Notes under the pieces: model-generated
The model's database searches: none
The model's input: the letters and a program-made list of their open reading frames with translations, nothing else
What the model was told of the DNA's origin: nothing
Shown here: one piece after another, positions 1,649 to 9,711 of the stretch
Numbering within the stretch: position 1 is the stretch's first letter
Layout of the letters: every line of letters begins with the position of its first letter
DNA from: Escherichia phage vB_Eco_ZCEC15
Length of the DNA: 64,000 bases
Reading direction: 5' to 3' (one strand)
Sequence record: PQ871103.1
Position numbers and translations under genes: made by a program

Positions 1649-4789
<3,141 letters not shown>

Positions 4790-4817: not shown

Positions 4818-6797
4818 ATGACTTTATTATCTCCGGGCATTGAGCTCAAAGAAACTACGGTTCAAAGCACCGTGGTTAATAACTCTACTGGTACAGCAGC
4901 TTTGGCCGGTAAATTCCAGTGGGGTCCTGCTTTTCAGATTAAACAGGTTACAAACGAAGTAGATTTAGTTAATACTTTTGGTCAACCTACAGCTGAAACT
5001 GCTGACTATTTTATGTCTGCAATGAATTTCTTACAATATGGAAATGATTTGCGAGTTGTGCGCGCTGTCGATAGAGATACCGCTAAAAACTCATCTCCGA
5101 TTGCTGGTAATATTGAATACACAATTTCTACCCCAGGTAGTAACTACGCGGTTGGAGATAAAATCACGGTCAAATATGTTTCAGAAGATGTTGAAACAGA
5201 AGGTAAAATTACCGAAGTAGATGCTGATGGAAAAATTAAGAAAATTAATATTCCTACTGCAAAAATTATTGCTAAAGCTAAAGAAGTTGGCGAATACCCA
5301 ACATTAGGTTCTAACTGGACTGCAGAAATTTCTTCGTCTTCCTCTGGTTTAGCTGCAGTAATAACTCTTGGAAAAATTATTACTGATTCTGGTATTTTAT
5401 TAGCTGAAATTGAAAATGCTGAAGCTGCTATGACAGCTGTTGACTTTCAAGCAAGTCTCGAAAAATATGGAATTCCAGGAGTAGTAGCTCTTTATCCAGG
5501 TGAGTTGGGCGATAAAATTGAAATTGAAATCGTATCTAAAGCTGACTACGCAAAAGGGGCTTCTGCATTACTCCCAATTTATCCAGGTGGCGGAACACGC
5601 GCATCTACTGCCAAAGCAGTGTTTGGATATGGACCACAAACTGACTCGCAATACGCTATTATAGTTCGTCGCAATGATGCTATTGTTCAAAGCGTTGTTC
5701 TTTCAACGAAGCGTGGTGAAAAAGATATTTACGATAGTAACATCTATATTGATGACTTTTTCGCAAAAGGCGGTTCAGAATATATTTTTGCAACTGCACA
5801 AAACTGGCCAGAAGGCTTCTCTGGAATTTTAACTCTGTCTGGTGGATTATCATCAAATGCTGAAGTAACAGCAGGAGATTTGATGGAAGCTTGGGACTTC
5901 TTTGCTGACCGCGAATCTGTTGACGTTCAGTTGTTTATTGCGGGTTCTTGTGCCGGTGAATCTTTAGAAACAGCATCTACTGTCCAAAAACACGTCGTTT
6001 CAATTGGAGATGCTCGCCAAGATTGCTTAGTATTGTGCTCACCACCGCGTGAAACTGTTGTTGGAATTCCTGTAACTCGTGCTGTTGATAACTTAGTCAA
6101 TTGGAGAACCGCATCAGGTTCATACACTGATAATAACTTTAATATCAGTTCAACCTACGCAGCAATTGATGGTAACTACAAGTATCAGTATGACAAATAT
6201 AATGATGTAAATCGTTGGGTTCCATTAGCAGCTGACATTGCTGGTTTATGCGCGAGAACTGATAACGTTTCTCAGACTTGGATGTCTCCAGCTGGTTATA
6301 ATCGTGGCCAGATTCTTAACGTTATTAAACTTGCTATTGAAACTCGCCAAGCTCAGCGCGACCGTTTATATCAAGAAGCTATCAACCCAGTAACTGGTAC
6401 AGGTGGTGATGGTTACGTATTATATGGTGATAAAACAGCTACTTCTGTTCCTTCTCCATTTGATCGTATTAACGTTCGTCGTCTGTTTAATATGTTGAAA
6501 ACGAATATCGGACGTAGTTCAAAATATCGTTTGTTCGAATTAAACAACGCGTTTACTCGTTCATCATTCCGCACAGAAACTGCCCAGTACTTACAGGGAA
6601 TTAAAGCTCTCGGTGGAATTTATGAATATCGTGTAGTTTGCGATACAACAAATAATACTCCGTCAGTAATTGATAGAAATGAGTTTGTTGCAACATTCTA
6701 CATCCAACCGGCGCGCAGTATAAATTATATTACTTTGAATTTCGTCGCAACTGCTACTGGTGCAGACTTCGATGAGTTAACTGGTCTTGCAGGTTAA
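4818..6797 (+). CDS. 18: Tail sheath protein gp18
   Basis: 659 aa, same length as T4 gp18; position. Confidence 0.95.
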   Translation: MTLLSPGIELKETTVQSTVVNNSTGTAALAGKFQWGPAFQIKQVTNEVDLVNTFGQPTAETADYFMSAMNFLQYGNDLRVVRAVDRDTAKNSSPIAGNIEYTISTPGSNYAVGDKITVKYVSEDVETEGKITEVDADGKIKKINIPTAKIIAKAKEVGEYPTLGSNWTAEISSSSSGLAAVITLGKIITDSGILLAEIENAEAAMTAVDFQASLEKYGIPGVVALYPGELGDKIEIEIVSKADYAKGASALLPIYPGGGTRASTAKAVFGYGPQTDSQYAIIVRRNDAIVQSVVLSTKRGEKDIYDSNIYIDDFFAKGGSEYIFATAQNWPEGFSGILTLSGGLSSNAEVTAGDLMEAWDFFADRESVDVQLFIAGSCAGESLETASTVQKHVVSIGDARQDCLVLCSPPRETVVGIPVTRAVDNLVNWRTASGSYTDNNFNISSTYAAIDGNYKYQYDKYNDVNRWVPLAADIAGLCARTDNVSQTWMSPAGYNRGQILNVIKLAIETRQAQRDRLYQEAINPVTGTGGDGYVLYGDKTATSVPSPFDRINVRRLFNMLKTNIGRSSKYRLFELNNAFTRSSFRTETAQYLQGIKALGGIYEYRVVCDTTNNTPSVIDRNEFVATFYIQPARSINYITLNFVATATGADFDELTGLAG

Positions 6798-7454
6798 TTG
6801 ATTATGGGGCTTCGGCCCCTATTCTCGAGGAAACAAGTGATTATTTCTAAGTTTGTTAAAGTGAAAATTGTACCATCAAATTTTAAACATTATCAATCAA
6901 AGGGTTATAAATTAACACCTCTTGGAGCGGTTAAACATGGATTTAGGTATTATGAAATTGATGTTAAAGTTGAAGACATTAAAGGTAGTACCGCGTATGT
7001 AAAATGCCGTTGCGATAAATGTGGAATTGAATATAACCAACGCATTGGAAGAAACACTGATATTTGTCGTGATTGCCGTCATAAAGATAAAATGCGCAAT
7101 AATTCATATGGTTCCGCGAATAAAGGAAAAACAGTAGAATGTATGCATGGCGTAAATCATCCAAGATGGAACCCAAATAAATCTGAAATGCGTGAATATA
7201 TTTCATTGGTATATAAAGAAACTCGTAAGCATAAGAAAATTTGGTCAAAATGGCCAAATGCTGATAAAATAGGAGTGTGCGGTACAAAAGGTGCTTACCA
7301 ACTTGATCATAAGGTATCTATCAAATACGGTTTTGATAATTTAATTCCTGCTGAAATAATTGGCGGTATTAATAATTTAGAAATAATCACTTGGGAATCT
7401 AACCGAGAAAAATCAAAAAGAAATAGTGTAGATCTTTGGGATTTACTAGAATGA
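6798..7454 (+). CDS. Zinc-finger/HNH-family endonuclease (free-standing homing-endonuclease-like); true start may be GTG at 6837 after GAGG
   Basis: Cys cluster CRCDKCG...CRDCRH followed by HNH-like core QLDHKVSIKYG...NNLEIITWESNREKS; ORF start as listed is TTG inside the gp18 terminator hairpin. Confidence 0.65.
   Translation: MIMGLRPLFSRKQVIISKFVKVKIVPSNFKHYQSKGYKLTPLGAVKHGFRYYEIDVKVEDIKGSTAYVKCRCDKCGIEYNQRIGRNTDICRDCRHKDKMRNNSYGSANKGKTVECMHGVNHPRWNPNKSEMREYISLVYKETRKHKKIWSKWPNADKIGVCGTKGAYQLDHKVSIKYGFDNLIPAEIIGGINNLEIITWESNREKSKRNSVDLWDLLE
6806..6819 (+). terminator. GC hairpin GGGGCTTCGGCCCC after gene 18
   Basis: Perfect 5-bp GC stem with TTCG loop 9 nt after gp18 stop. Confidence 0.5.
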
Positions 7455-7460
7455 TTCTAA

Positions 7461-7479
7461 AGGCCTGTTTCGGCAGGCC
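7461..7479 (+). terminator. Hairpin AGGCCTG-TTTCGG-CAGGCC after HNH ORF
   Basis: Inverted repeat directly after ORF stop. Confidence 0.45.
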
Positions 7480-7480
7480 A

Positions 7481-7488
7481 TATAAATA
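7481..7488 (+). promoter_or_regulatory. Late promoter box TATAAATA (distal, gene 19)
   Basis: Exact TATAAATA in intergenic region. Confidence 0.5.
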
Positions 7489-7539
7489 CACTATATCCTT
7501 AATTCTTTAATTCTATATGCCCTAGGTTAAACATAGGGA

Positions 7540-7547
7540 TATAAATA
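7540..7547 (+). promoter_or_regulatory. Late promoter box TATAAATA (proximal, gene 19)
   Basis: Exact TATAAATA 15 nt upstream of gp19 ATG. Confidence 0.6.
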
Positions 7548-7561
7548 CTACAGAGGCTAAT

Positions 7562-8053
7562 ATGTTTGTAGATGATGTAACACGCGCGTTTGAATCGGGT
7601 GATTTTGCGCGACCTAACTTATTCCAAGTAGAAATTTCTTATCTTGGACAAAATTTTACGTTTCAATGTAAAGCCACTGCTTTACCAGCTGGTATTGTAG
7701 AAAAAATCCCAGTCGGATTTATGAACCGTAAAATTAACGTAGCAGGCGATCGTACATTCGATGACTGGACTGTTACAGTAATGAACGATGAAGCTCATGA
7801 TGCTCGCCAGAAGTTCGTTGATTGGCAAAGCATTGCTGCGGGGCAAGGAAACGAAATTACTGGTGGAAAACCTGCAGAGTATAAAAAGAGCGCTATCGTT
7901 CGTCAATATGCTCGTGATGCTAAAACAGTAACAAAAGAAATTGAAATTAAAGGTCTGTGGCCTACTAACGTGGGTGAACTTCAATTAGATTGGGATTCAA
8001 ACAATGAAATCCAAACATTTGAAGTAACTCTCGCTCTCGATTATTGGGAATAA
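7562..8053 (+). CDS. 19: Tail tube protein gp19
   Basis: 163 aa as T4 gp19; follows sheath gene. Confidence 0.95.
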   Translation: MFVDDVTRAFESGDFARPNLFQVEISYLGQNFTFQCKATALPAGIVEKIPVGFMNRKINVAGDRTFDDWTVTVMNDEAHDARQKFVDWQSIAAGQGNEITGGKPAEYKKSAIVRQYARDAKTVTKEIEIKGLWPTNVGELQLDWDSNNEIQTFEVTLALDYWE

Positions 8054-8060
8054 AATGAAT

Positions 8061-8074
8061 GGGGAGAAATCCCC
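8061..8074 (+). terminator. Hairpin GGGGAGAAATCCCC after gene 19
   Basis: GC stem-loop 8 nt after stop. Confidence 0.45.
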
Positions 8075-8085
8075 ATCCTGCTTAA

Positions 8086-9710
<1,625 letters not shown>

Positions 9711-9711
<1 letters not shown>

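Follow-up and report, generated by a model that had tools for sequence, protein, structure and literature searches.

A zinc-finger/HNH insert between the tail sheath and tail tube genes of Escherichia phage vB_Eco_ZCEC15 is probably a free-standing homing endonuclease cassette

We analysed 64,000 nucleotides of DNA from Escherichia phage vB_Eco_ZCEC15 (sequence record PQ871103.1; hereafter the window, numbered 5′ to 3′ from its first letter) with regard to an open reading frame (ORF) between the tail sheath gene 18 and the tail tube gene 19, which encodes a protein with a predicted zinc finger and an HNH-like core. The source is a T4-type phage (Tequatrovirus), a 1.7-kb query around the ORF being 99.2% identical to phage HY03 and 98.7% identical to RB3. 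The ORF is carried by a 656-bp insert (6798..7453, plus strand) that stands directly after the gene 18 stop codon, as seen in alignment with T4 and PP01, and this insert is probably the gene cassette of a free-standing HNH homing endonuclease. A preliminary description, made from the letters of the window, had already placed an ORF in the 18–19 space; it is real and runs on the plus strand from TTG 6798 or GTG 6837 to the TGA at 7452–7454. The motifs, hairpins and promoter boxes described below are likewise given on the plus strand.

The evidence for an insertion comes from comparison of the 18–19 junction across T-even relatives. In T4 the 18–19 spacer is 116 nt long and contains no ORF, and the same is true of T2, in agreement with the earlier statement that the T4 reference has no gene at this position. 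Insert-free phages (T4, T2 and ∼77% of Tequatrovirus records) have in place of the insert an 8-nt filler, TACGGTGC, which was common to the six empty genomes sampled, one having TACAGTGC, with one base different. A census of 496 phage records with flanks at least 95% identical separated three states of the locus: allele A in 47 records (∼9%), including RB3, HY03, HP3, Sf22 and pSs-1; a second form, allele B or T6 type, in ∼70 (∼14%), including T6, PP01, ECML-134 and PST; and no insert in ∼380 (∼77%), T4 and T2 among them. Boundaries were set by the alignment with T4 and PP01 together with exact-anchor positions in 14 genomes, where anchor-to-anchor sizes were 655–657 nt for allele A, 643–644 nt for allele B and 8 nt for empty genomes. 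Six genomes with allele A and three with allele B have the same junctions, and their flanks are otherwise ∼96–99% identical. The insert is thus polymorphic for presence and absence, with identical boundaries, among phages ∼97% identical in the flanks. A conserved non-nuclease gene, which the preliminary description had named as one finding that would speak against a nuclease insertion, does not occupy this position in the close relatives: most lack any insert, and those that have one carry a nuclease of the same family.

The same slot is occupied in far more distant phages. We examined the genomic context of 20 full-length members, namely Tequatrovirus alleles A and B, VR7, Bp7, PSD9, phiS, AS-zj, AbTZA1, phiM7, five metagenomic contig types and six IMG/VR loci. 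The phages that carry them span three Straboviridae subfamilies, the genus Krischvirus (phiS), Sinorhizobium phage phiM7 and uncultured phages; VR7, where the gene is called 'gp19.1', belongs to Gaprivervirus, Bp7 and PSD9 to Dhakavirus, and AS-zj and AbTZA1 are an Aeromonas and an Acinetobacter phage. All 20 members adjoin the 3′ end of a tail-sheath gene, 19 of them lie between sheath and tube, and two (at loci L035 and L036) are inverted relative to the tail genes. At other loci the nuclease domain is joined to other N-terminal domains, either zinc-ribbon or DUF7487, and neighbouring junctions in several of the metagenomic loci hold NUMOD3, DUF7487 or IS605 elements. Loyalty to a site without loyalty to an orientation, combined with a nuclease domain that travels separately, is the pattern that a site-specific mobile nuclease gene would show, and a gene integrated into the function of the tail operon would not be expected to behave in this way. 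The earlier view of the ORF as a free-standing insertion of homing-endonuclease type is supported on both counts, by the polymorphism with identical boundaries and by the use of the sheath–tube slot, twice in inverted orientation, in very distant phages.

We next consider the protein. It matches PHROG 5104 (E 3e-91), a family labelled 'unknown function', and a search of 1.84 billion proteins with a profile built from 31 homologues gave 6,202 cluster representatives at E≤1e-3, of which 1,502 reached E≤1e-10. Conservation was assessed in an alignment of 115 diverse homologues, 24–53% identical to the query. Only C62, D157, H158, N180 and N189 are invariant in these sequences, and C59, C77, C80, Y121, V125, L181 and K192 are at least 90% conserved. 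The four cysteines form a zinc-binding CxxC-14-CxxC arrangement (C59, C62, C77 and C80; 7011..7076), a putative treble-clef or zinc-ribbon nucleic-acid-binding element, and the remaining invariant residues fall within a predicted C-terminal nuclease domain (residues 100–205; 7134..7451). Its HNH-like core (7296..7412) consists of a first strand YQLDH with D157 and H158, a second strand NLEII with N180, and a helix WESNREK with N189 and K192. Judged from sequence, the pattern D-H...N-L...N-R-x-K corresponds to the HNH active-site signature, of the H-N-N type. The Cys cluster and the QLDH...NNL...NREK motif are located where the preliminary description had put them.

Profile matches among relatives are weak but point in the same direction. 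Of the 115 homologues, three match Pfam HNH_4 (best E 3.5e-4) and one matches HNH (E 0.004), all below gathering scores. NUMOD3, a module typical of homing endonucleases, is found in two relatives (E 2.7e-8), and DUF7487, which is also present in the Hef-like homing endonuclease F-LimVIII, in four. The Pfam family DUF4379, 'probable treble clef zinc finger', matches 9–10 members (best E 7e-6), none of them firmly significantly, and a profile search of PDB sequences gave weak matches to zinc-finger chains. A profile search with mostly full-length rows returned only unannotated family members.

AlphaFold2 models had a pLDDT of 86 for the whole protein and 94.6 for residues 100–205. In these models D157 and H158 lie at the end of a strand, N180 starts the next strand and N189 is on the following helix, so that the beta-beta-alpha arrangement of a metal site, which defines the HNH superfamily, is present. 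The top structural matches of both the full-length and the C-domain models are HNH nucleases, the best two being Gme HNH (4h9d) and GVE2 HNH (5h0o), followed by Cas9 HNH domains, McrA, T5 SciA, Cap5, PtuB, SspE-CTD, BrxU, VcaM4I, DraIII and endonuclease I. Match scores were modest, as is usual for the small HNH fold, and a Foldseek search of the PDB with the full-length model gave nothing significant, its top match (E 0.38) being the Nme1Cas9 HNH domain. An hhalign comparison placed the four key residues on D839/H840, N854 and N863 of the SpCas9 HNH domain with E 0.012 and a probability of 3.6%, a lead and not a test. From the models and the motif we assign the C-terminal half, with good but not complete confidence, as a predicted nuclease domain of HNH type, and the N-terminal half is probably a zinc-finger domain that binds nucleic acid. 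The pairing of a zinc finger with an HNH-like core in the preliminary description is therefore supported by the invariant D-H...N...N residues, the near-invariant CxxC...CxxC, the HNH nucleases at the top of the structural matches and the weak Pfam matches in relatives.

Two other functions for such a protein have to be weighed against this evidence. One is that it is catalytically inactive, a zinc-finger nucleic-acid-binding protein such as a late tail-gene regulator that has the shape of an HNH protein and nothing more. No curated HNH profile reaches threshold, and the gene is placed between a terminator-like hairpin and the late promoters of gene 19, as might suit a regulator; however, the four would-be HNH active-site residues are the only invariant non-cysteine positions in 115 sequences, the gene is dispensable in most relatives, and its flips of orientation speak against a regulatory role linked in cis, such that we regard an inactive binder as very unlikely. 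The other is a packaging helper, a terminase-associated HNH protein of the HK97 gp74 or GVE2 type. GVE2 HNH, one of the two best structural matches, is such a protein (the other, Gme HNH, is a stand-alone nicking enzyme), and the gene is ∼2 kb downstream of the large terminase gene. However, T4, T2 and ∼77% of close relatives do without it and still package normally; the neighbour that is conserved is the sheath gene, which lies between the two, and not the terminase (as locus L032 illustrates); the T4-type terminase has a nuclease of its own according to the T4 annotation; and a dimorphic N-terminal zinc-finger domain would be unexpected in a partner of terminase. A role in packaging is, on this evidence, extremely improbable.

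The dimorphism is confined to one part of the gene. Sliding identity between the window and phage VEc20, which carries allele B, showed that the DNA of the two alleles is 100% identical at 6798–6857 and ∼90% identical at 7233–7453, whereas between these lies a variable cassette (6858..7232; codons ∼8–132, comprising the N-terminal domain and linker) in which identity falls to 40–60%. At the protein level alleles A and B are 28% identical in the N-terminal region and 86% identical in the C-terminal region. Three further pairs of homologues from other phage lineages have the same split, with 27–35% identity in the N-terminal and 85–94% in the C-terminal region. Since the same pattern of identity recurs in four lineages, the two N-terminal forms appear from these alignments to be old and to have been joined repeatedly, by recombination, to nuclease domains peculiar to each lineage. 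Should target specificity reside in the N-terminal domain, a single genomic site would be shared by two specificity classes, and if A and B recognise different sequences, each might cut empty genomes or genomes with the other form. It is conceivable, albeit doubtful, that the family makes up a very large lineage of homing nucleases, as yet unnamed and devoted to the sheath–tube junction, in which the A and B N-terminal forms are rival specificity classes that compete for the one site. Both forms are under strong purifying selection, with dN/dS ratios of 0.10–0.16 for allele A and 0–0.03 for allele B, and the ORF is intact in all nine copies sampled (six A, three B).

The flanks of the insert were compared in 15 genomes for the marks that homing might have left. 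The densest variation in 2.8 kb of flanking sequence is in gene 18, where a 50-nt segment at −100 to −51 has 17 variable sites against a mean of ∼6 per 50 nt. This hot spot at the 3′ end of gene 18 (6704..6749), in the codons for ARSINYI(T/Q)LNFVA, is a candidate region of target variation and occurs as three haplotypes, with as many as 11 differences in 39 positions; almost all of these are synonymous, and one is a T/Q replacement. Haplotype H1 is found in five of six allele-A genomes, H2 in three of three allele-B genomes and H3 in T4-type empty genomes. The sole allele-A genome with a T4-like gene 18 flank haplotype is that of Shigella phage sb2 (L017), whose record splits gp18 into two annotated fragments and shortens the annotated nuclease ORF; it may contain sequencing errors. 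We considered the gene 18 haplotype of the window, H1, as a signature of co-conversion and rejected it as such, since it is not specific to carriers: ∼60 empty genomes share H1. More distal haplotypes are mixed among carriers and empty genomes, HY03 (A), SNUABM01 (B) and Sf23 (empty) sharing a block 1.2–1.4 kb upstream, and scans of IMG/VR for exact junction patterns found five empty and no carrier Tequatrovirus contigs, too few for an association with haplotype. The target of the enzyme could lie in the gene 18 hot spot or equally at the empty junction that the insert would split. Were the A and B forms rivals in the sense proposed above, an arms race between them would have left its record in the synonymous hot spot, within the final 100 nt of gene 18. 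The right flank, by comparison, is nearly invariant, with two variable sites in its first 100 nt. Positions 7454–7583 of the window, which hold a hairpin, two late promoters and the gene 19 ribosome-binding site, are near-invariant as a whole, whereas adjacent coding sequence varies at 7–14% of sites; regulatory constraint is the probable cause.

Several of our results weigh against a homing endonuclease. Curated libraries gave little for the query (nothing better than E 0.15 in Pfam, nothing useful in NCBIfam, nothing in PADLOC, and zinc-ribbon noise only, at E>0.1), the Pfam HNH models did not match it at E≤1, and phmmer and HMMER profile searches of PDB sequences gave matches of zinc-finger type only and no HNH chain. 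The HNH profile match to which the preliminary description had looked is accordingly missing for the query and appears, weakly, as HNH_4 and HNH matches in some of its relatives; we judge the missing match to be outweighed by the other evidence, because Pfam has no model for the family. No degraded copies were found among the nine sampled; their absence, together with strong purifying selection, is no less expected of a useful gene than of a purely selfish one. Vertical descent, with loss on repeated occasions, could also account for the common position in very distant phages. Finally, H1 and H2 also occur in empty genomes (H1 in ∼60 empty records, including T2, by short-query megablast), and the flank haplotypes gave linkage only, with no demonstrable insert-specific co-conversion tract or immunity signature.

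Such points bear on a further explanation, in which the gene encodes an accessory nuclease that has long been passed down vertically in the T4-type tail block, has been lost in many lineages, T4 and T2 included, and is of direct benefit to the phage, for example through attack on competitor or host DNA or through counter-defence. The same position as far away as Sinorhizobium phage phiM7 and uncultured T4-like phages would suit such a gene, as would its strong purifying selection with no pseudogenes in the sample and its own late promoter in VR7, Bp7 and AbTZA1, and the T-even literature sees phage exclusion as a consequence of such nucleases (PMC2993671). It is weakened however by the two members that are inverted within the same spacer, by clean presence or absence at identical junctions in phages ∼97% identical, by N-terminal domains swapped between alleles in four lineages and by the joining of the nuclease domain to other DNA-binding modules elsewhere. 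We consider this explanation unlikely on balance; it is, moreover, compatible with homing, in that T4 homing nucleases also cause marker exclusion.

The homing endonuclease cassette that we favour has an arrangement of expression signals of its own. The preliminary description had left the start codon open between TTG 6798 and GTG 6837. The true start is almost certainly the GTG at 6837, giving a coding sequence at 6837..7454 of 205 codons plus stop, and not 218 codons, because a Shine–Dalgarno GAGG (6827..6830), kept in alleles A and B, lies 6 nt before it, the PHROG 5104 alignment starts at this residue, homologues start at the equivalent place and the two alleles are identical over 6798–6857. 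GTG 6837 is also the annotated start in RB3, HY03 and Sf22. Homologues in nine other phages of eight genera have M/V/L-I/L-I/T at the equivalent start and ribosome-binding sites of their own, five of the nine using GTG or TTG. The TTG at 6798 was dropped on the strength of the PHROG alignment start and the homologue starts.

Two hairpins with a UUCG tetraloop flank the ORF, of which one came with the insert and one did not. The insert-borne hairpin, GGGGC-UUCG-GCCCC with a cUUCGg tetraloop (6806..6819; identified from sequence and folding), begins 8 nt past the gene 18 stop codon, whereas the downstream hairpin, GGCCUGU-UUCG-GCAGGCC (7462..7479; −14.1 kcal/mol, z −2.95), is outside the insert and the same in T4 and PP01. 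Outside it too are the two late-promoter boxes TATAAATA of gene 19, located by pattern search at 7481–7488 and 7540–7547 and identical in T4. The preliminary description had listed both hairpins and both boxes as flanking the ORF; the upstream hairpin does belong to the insert, but the downstream hairpin and both TATAAATA boxes are native T4 elements that insert-free phages also have. The cassette thereby gives gene 18 a new 3′ hairpin and displaces the native one 660 nt downstream. The hairpin at 6806–6819 has no T-run behind it and was not predicted to be an intrinsic terminator; its probable role is to end or stabilise the mRNA of gene 18 and to reduce the transcription that runs on into the nuclease ORF. 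We also considered whether it hides the ribosome-binding site and rejected this, an extended fold pairing two bases of the GAGG with an energy no better than that of shuffled sequence (z −1.1).

There is no late promoter in the cassette itself, the nearest upstream TATAAATA being the gene 18 promoter at 4782–4789, and transcription must therefore pass through the UUCG hairpin. Read-through past a hairpin in combination with a GTG start suggests low expression, as is expected for a nuclease able to harm its own genome. Non-ATG starts and a GC hairpin close upstream recur across genera, VR7, PSD9, AS-zj and phiS also having such a hairpin shortly before the homologue. A TATAAATA box stands directly upstream of the homologue in VR7, Bp7 and AbTZA1, which fits late expression.

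These observations can be accommodated in a mechanism in which the cassette spreads by homing. Late transcripts at a low level would arise from the gene 18 late promoter when polymerase runs past the UUCG hairpin, and the proposed GTG start would keep their translation weak. The N-terminal ∼95 residues around the four-cysteine zinc finger most likely recognise DNA, and the C-terminal ∼105 residues would act as a beta-beta-alpha-metal nuclease with H158 as general base and D157 and N189 as metal ligands. On co-infection with an insert-free relative such as T4 or T2, the enzyme would bind through its zinc finger in or beside the sheath–tube junction, and its single HNH site would nick or cut the insert-free genome; by analogy with MobA, MobE and the Gme HNH nicking enzyme, we infer that a nick is more likely than a cut. 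Recombination-dependent repair of the T4 type, with the carrier genome as template, would next transfer the cassette together with nearby markers, with the outcome that the cassette is over-inherited and the local alleles of the competitor are excluded. The carrier would be immune either through the insert, which splits the target, or through different synonymous codons at the 3′ end of its gene 18.

The closest functional parallels are the T4 Mob proteins. MobA to MobE, like the ORF described here, are intergenic ORFs between conserved genes, patchily distributed, with an HNH domain and a separate DNA-binding part; for MobA and MobE, nicking of the target and over-inheritance in crosses are on record (PMC2988022). 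Their order of domains is the reverse, with the HNH domain N-terminal and the binding region C-terminal, whereas here the zinc finger is N-terminal and the HNH domain C-terminal; the present core differs further in its active-site helix Asn (H-N-N) and in having no cysteine pairs. No similarity to Mob proteins was detected, the evidence being indirect: a tblastn search at E≤1e-3 gave 235 records, a number for which carriers of the family account, although it took in ∼380 empty Tequatrovirus genomes, the majority of which, like T4, presumably have mob genes. The ORF would work like the T4 Mob proteins and is not a member of the Mob family.

A second parallel is F-LimVIII of Dickeya phage LIMEstone1, a published putative Hef-like homing endonuclease, so named by homology, which is also free-standing in the sheath–tube slot and is inverted there (PMC3296691). 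The junction is thereby a documented site of a putative homing endonuclease, in favour of the reading adopted here. Its DUF7487 module is fused to the HNH domain of the present family in some metagenomic relatives. However, F-LimVIII is 596 residues long, its nuclease domain is of the Vsr/DUF559 type (PMC3239194) and not HNH, and hhalign gave a probability of 1% against our family. A Hef-like identity for the query was rejected, as the query has no DUF559 or MTES_1575 match and F-LimVIII, a combination of DUF7487 and Vsr/DUF559, has an unrelated nuclease domain. Among small stand-alone HNH nucleases, the Gme HNH nicking endonuclease (4h9d), GVE2 HNH (5h0o) and the T5 nickase SciA are comparable. 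HNH domains of the Cas9 type (HNH_4, PF13395) have the same D-H...N...N-R-x-K pattern, with matches below the family threshold, but the context here is unrelated, with no guide RNA and no RuvC domain. I-TevIII of RB3 and I-HmuI likewise combine a phage HNH nuclease domain with modular binding elements that include zinc fingers or NUMOD (PMC2988022); they are encoded inside group I introns, whereas the present ORF is free-standing, and no sequence similarity was detected.

In the papers searched we found no description of a gene at this position in T-even phages, matches to 'gp19.1' concerning phage SPP1. A gene of the PHROG 5104 type is not described in a review of T4 mobile elements (PMC2988022) or in a survey of T4-related genomes (PMC2993671), Table 5 of which gives no 'other HNH' for RB3, a carrier of allele A. 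The family is new and unnamed, without a Pfam model, within a well-known kind of element. Its interest is raised by its size, by the strictness with which it keeps to a single junction between essential tail genes and by its two-form predicted recognition domain, and the surprise to a specialist would be moderate. Free-standing homing endonucleases have their reference system in the T-even phages, and the classical strains T6 (B), RB3 (A) and T4 and T2 (empty) make up an immediate experimental system. A two-form N-terminal domain on a shared nuclease domain may indicate how such enzymes change specificity, and the A/B system may help to explain local mosaicism in the essential tail genes of phages used therapeutically.

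If correct, the assignment would also put right the labels of the gene in more than 200 sequenced phages and those of thousands of metagenomic proteins. GenBank labels for the family include hypothetical protein, gp19.1 and T6ORF160 and, sporadically, homing endonuclease, HNH endonuclease, type II restriction endonuclease, holin and head morphogenesis protein; in the ZCEC14 record the nuclease-like ORF is labelled 'holin'. Several other records in the comparison look mislabelled. 'Staphylococcus phage SAJK-IND' (MG010123.1, 32 kb) is 97.9% identical to the coliphage region, records named as Pseudomonas phages (PsgM02F and vB_PSGBLB0006) are near-identical Tequatrovirus sequence, and gp18 is called 'long tail fiber proximal subunit' in HY03 and 'chaperone for long tail fiber formation' in T2 (AP018813).

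Around the insert the window has the gene order 17, 18, nuclease-like ORF, 19, 20 in the ORF list, with gene 17 (large terminase) at 2954–4786, gene 18 (tail sheath) at 4818–6797, gene 19 (tail tube) at 7562–8053 and gene 20 (portal) at 8125–9711. The corresponding blocks of other phages contain additional nuclease-like ORFs. In Bp7 (L006) a 193-residue ORF with a weak match to the GIY-YIG protein SegE (E 0.0046) lies between tube and portal at 3670–4251, and the portal gene is annotated in two pieces (4309–4632, and from 4638 onward to 5531); possible causes are a second inserted nuclease gene and an error of sequencing or annotation. Two metagenomic T4-like contigs, L030 and L031, have the same family member and the same gene order, and L031 alone has between tube and portal (5116–5682) a 188-residue ORF with NUMOD3 and a weak match to HNH of the AHH type, a further presence/absence nuclease gene one junction downstream.

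The late structural block of L036 (GCA_013565555.1; regions 1732–4783 and 6695–8783) is crowded with mobile elements: between sheath and tube there are a TnpB/OrfB gene of the IS605 type, two small ORFs and the inverted family member, a 453-residue DUF7487 protein lies between terminase and sheath, and the terminase gene has a weak intein-splicing match. In L028, from an uncultured T4-like phage that has a sheath–tube member too, a 204-residue NUMOD3 ORF (E 1.3e-7) is found at 1440–2054 in the gap between large terminase and sheath. The metagenomic locus L046 encodes a 549-residue protein (2916–4565) in which the HNH domain of the family is central (GAYQLDHKVSV...NLQMLPW) and is followed by a C-terminal extension of ∼300 residues.

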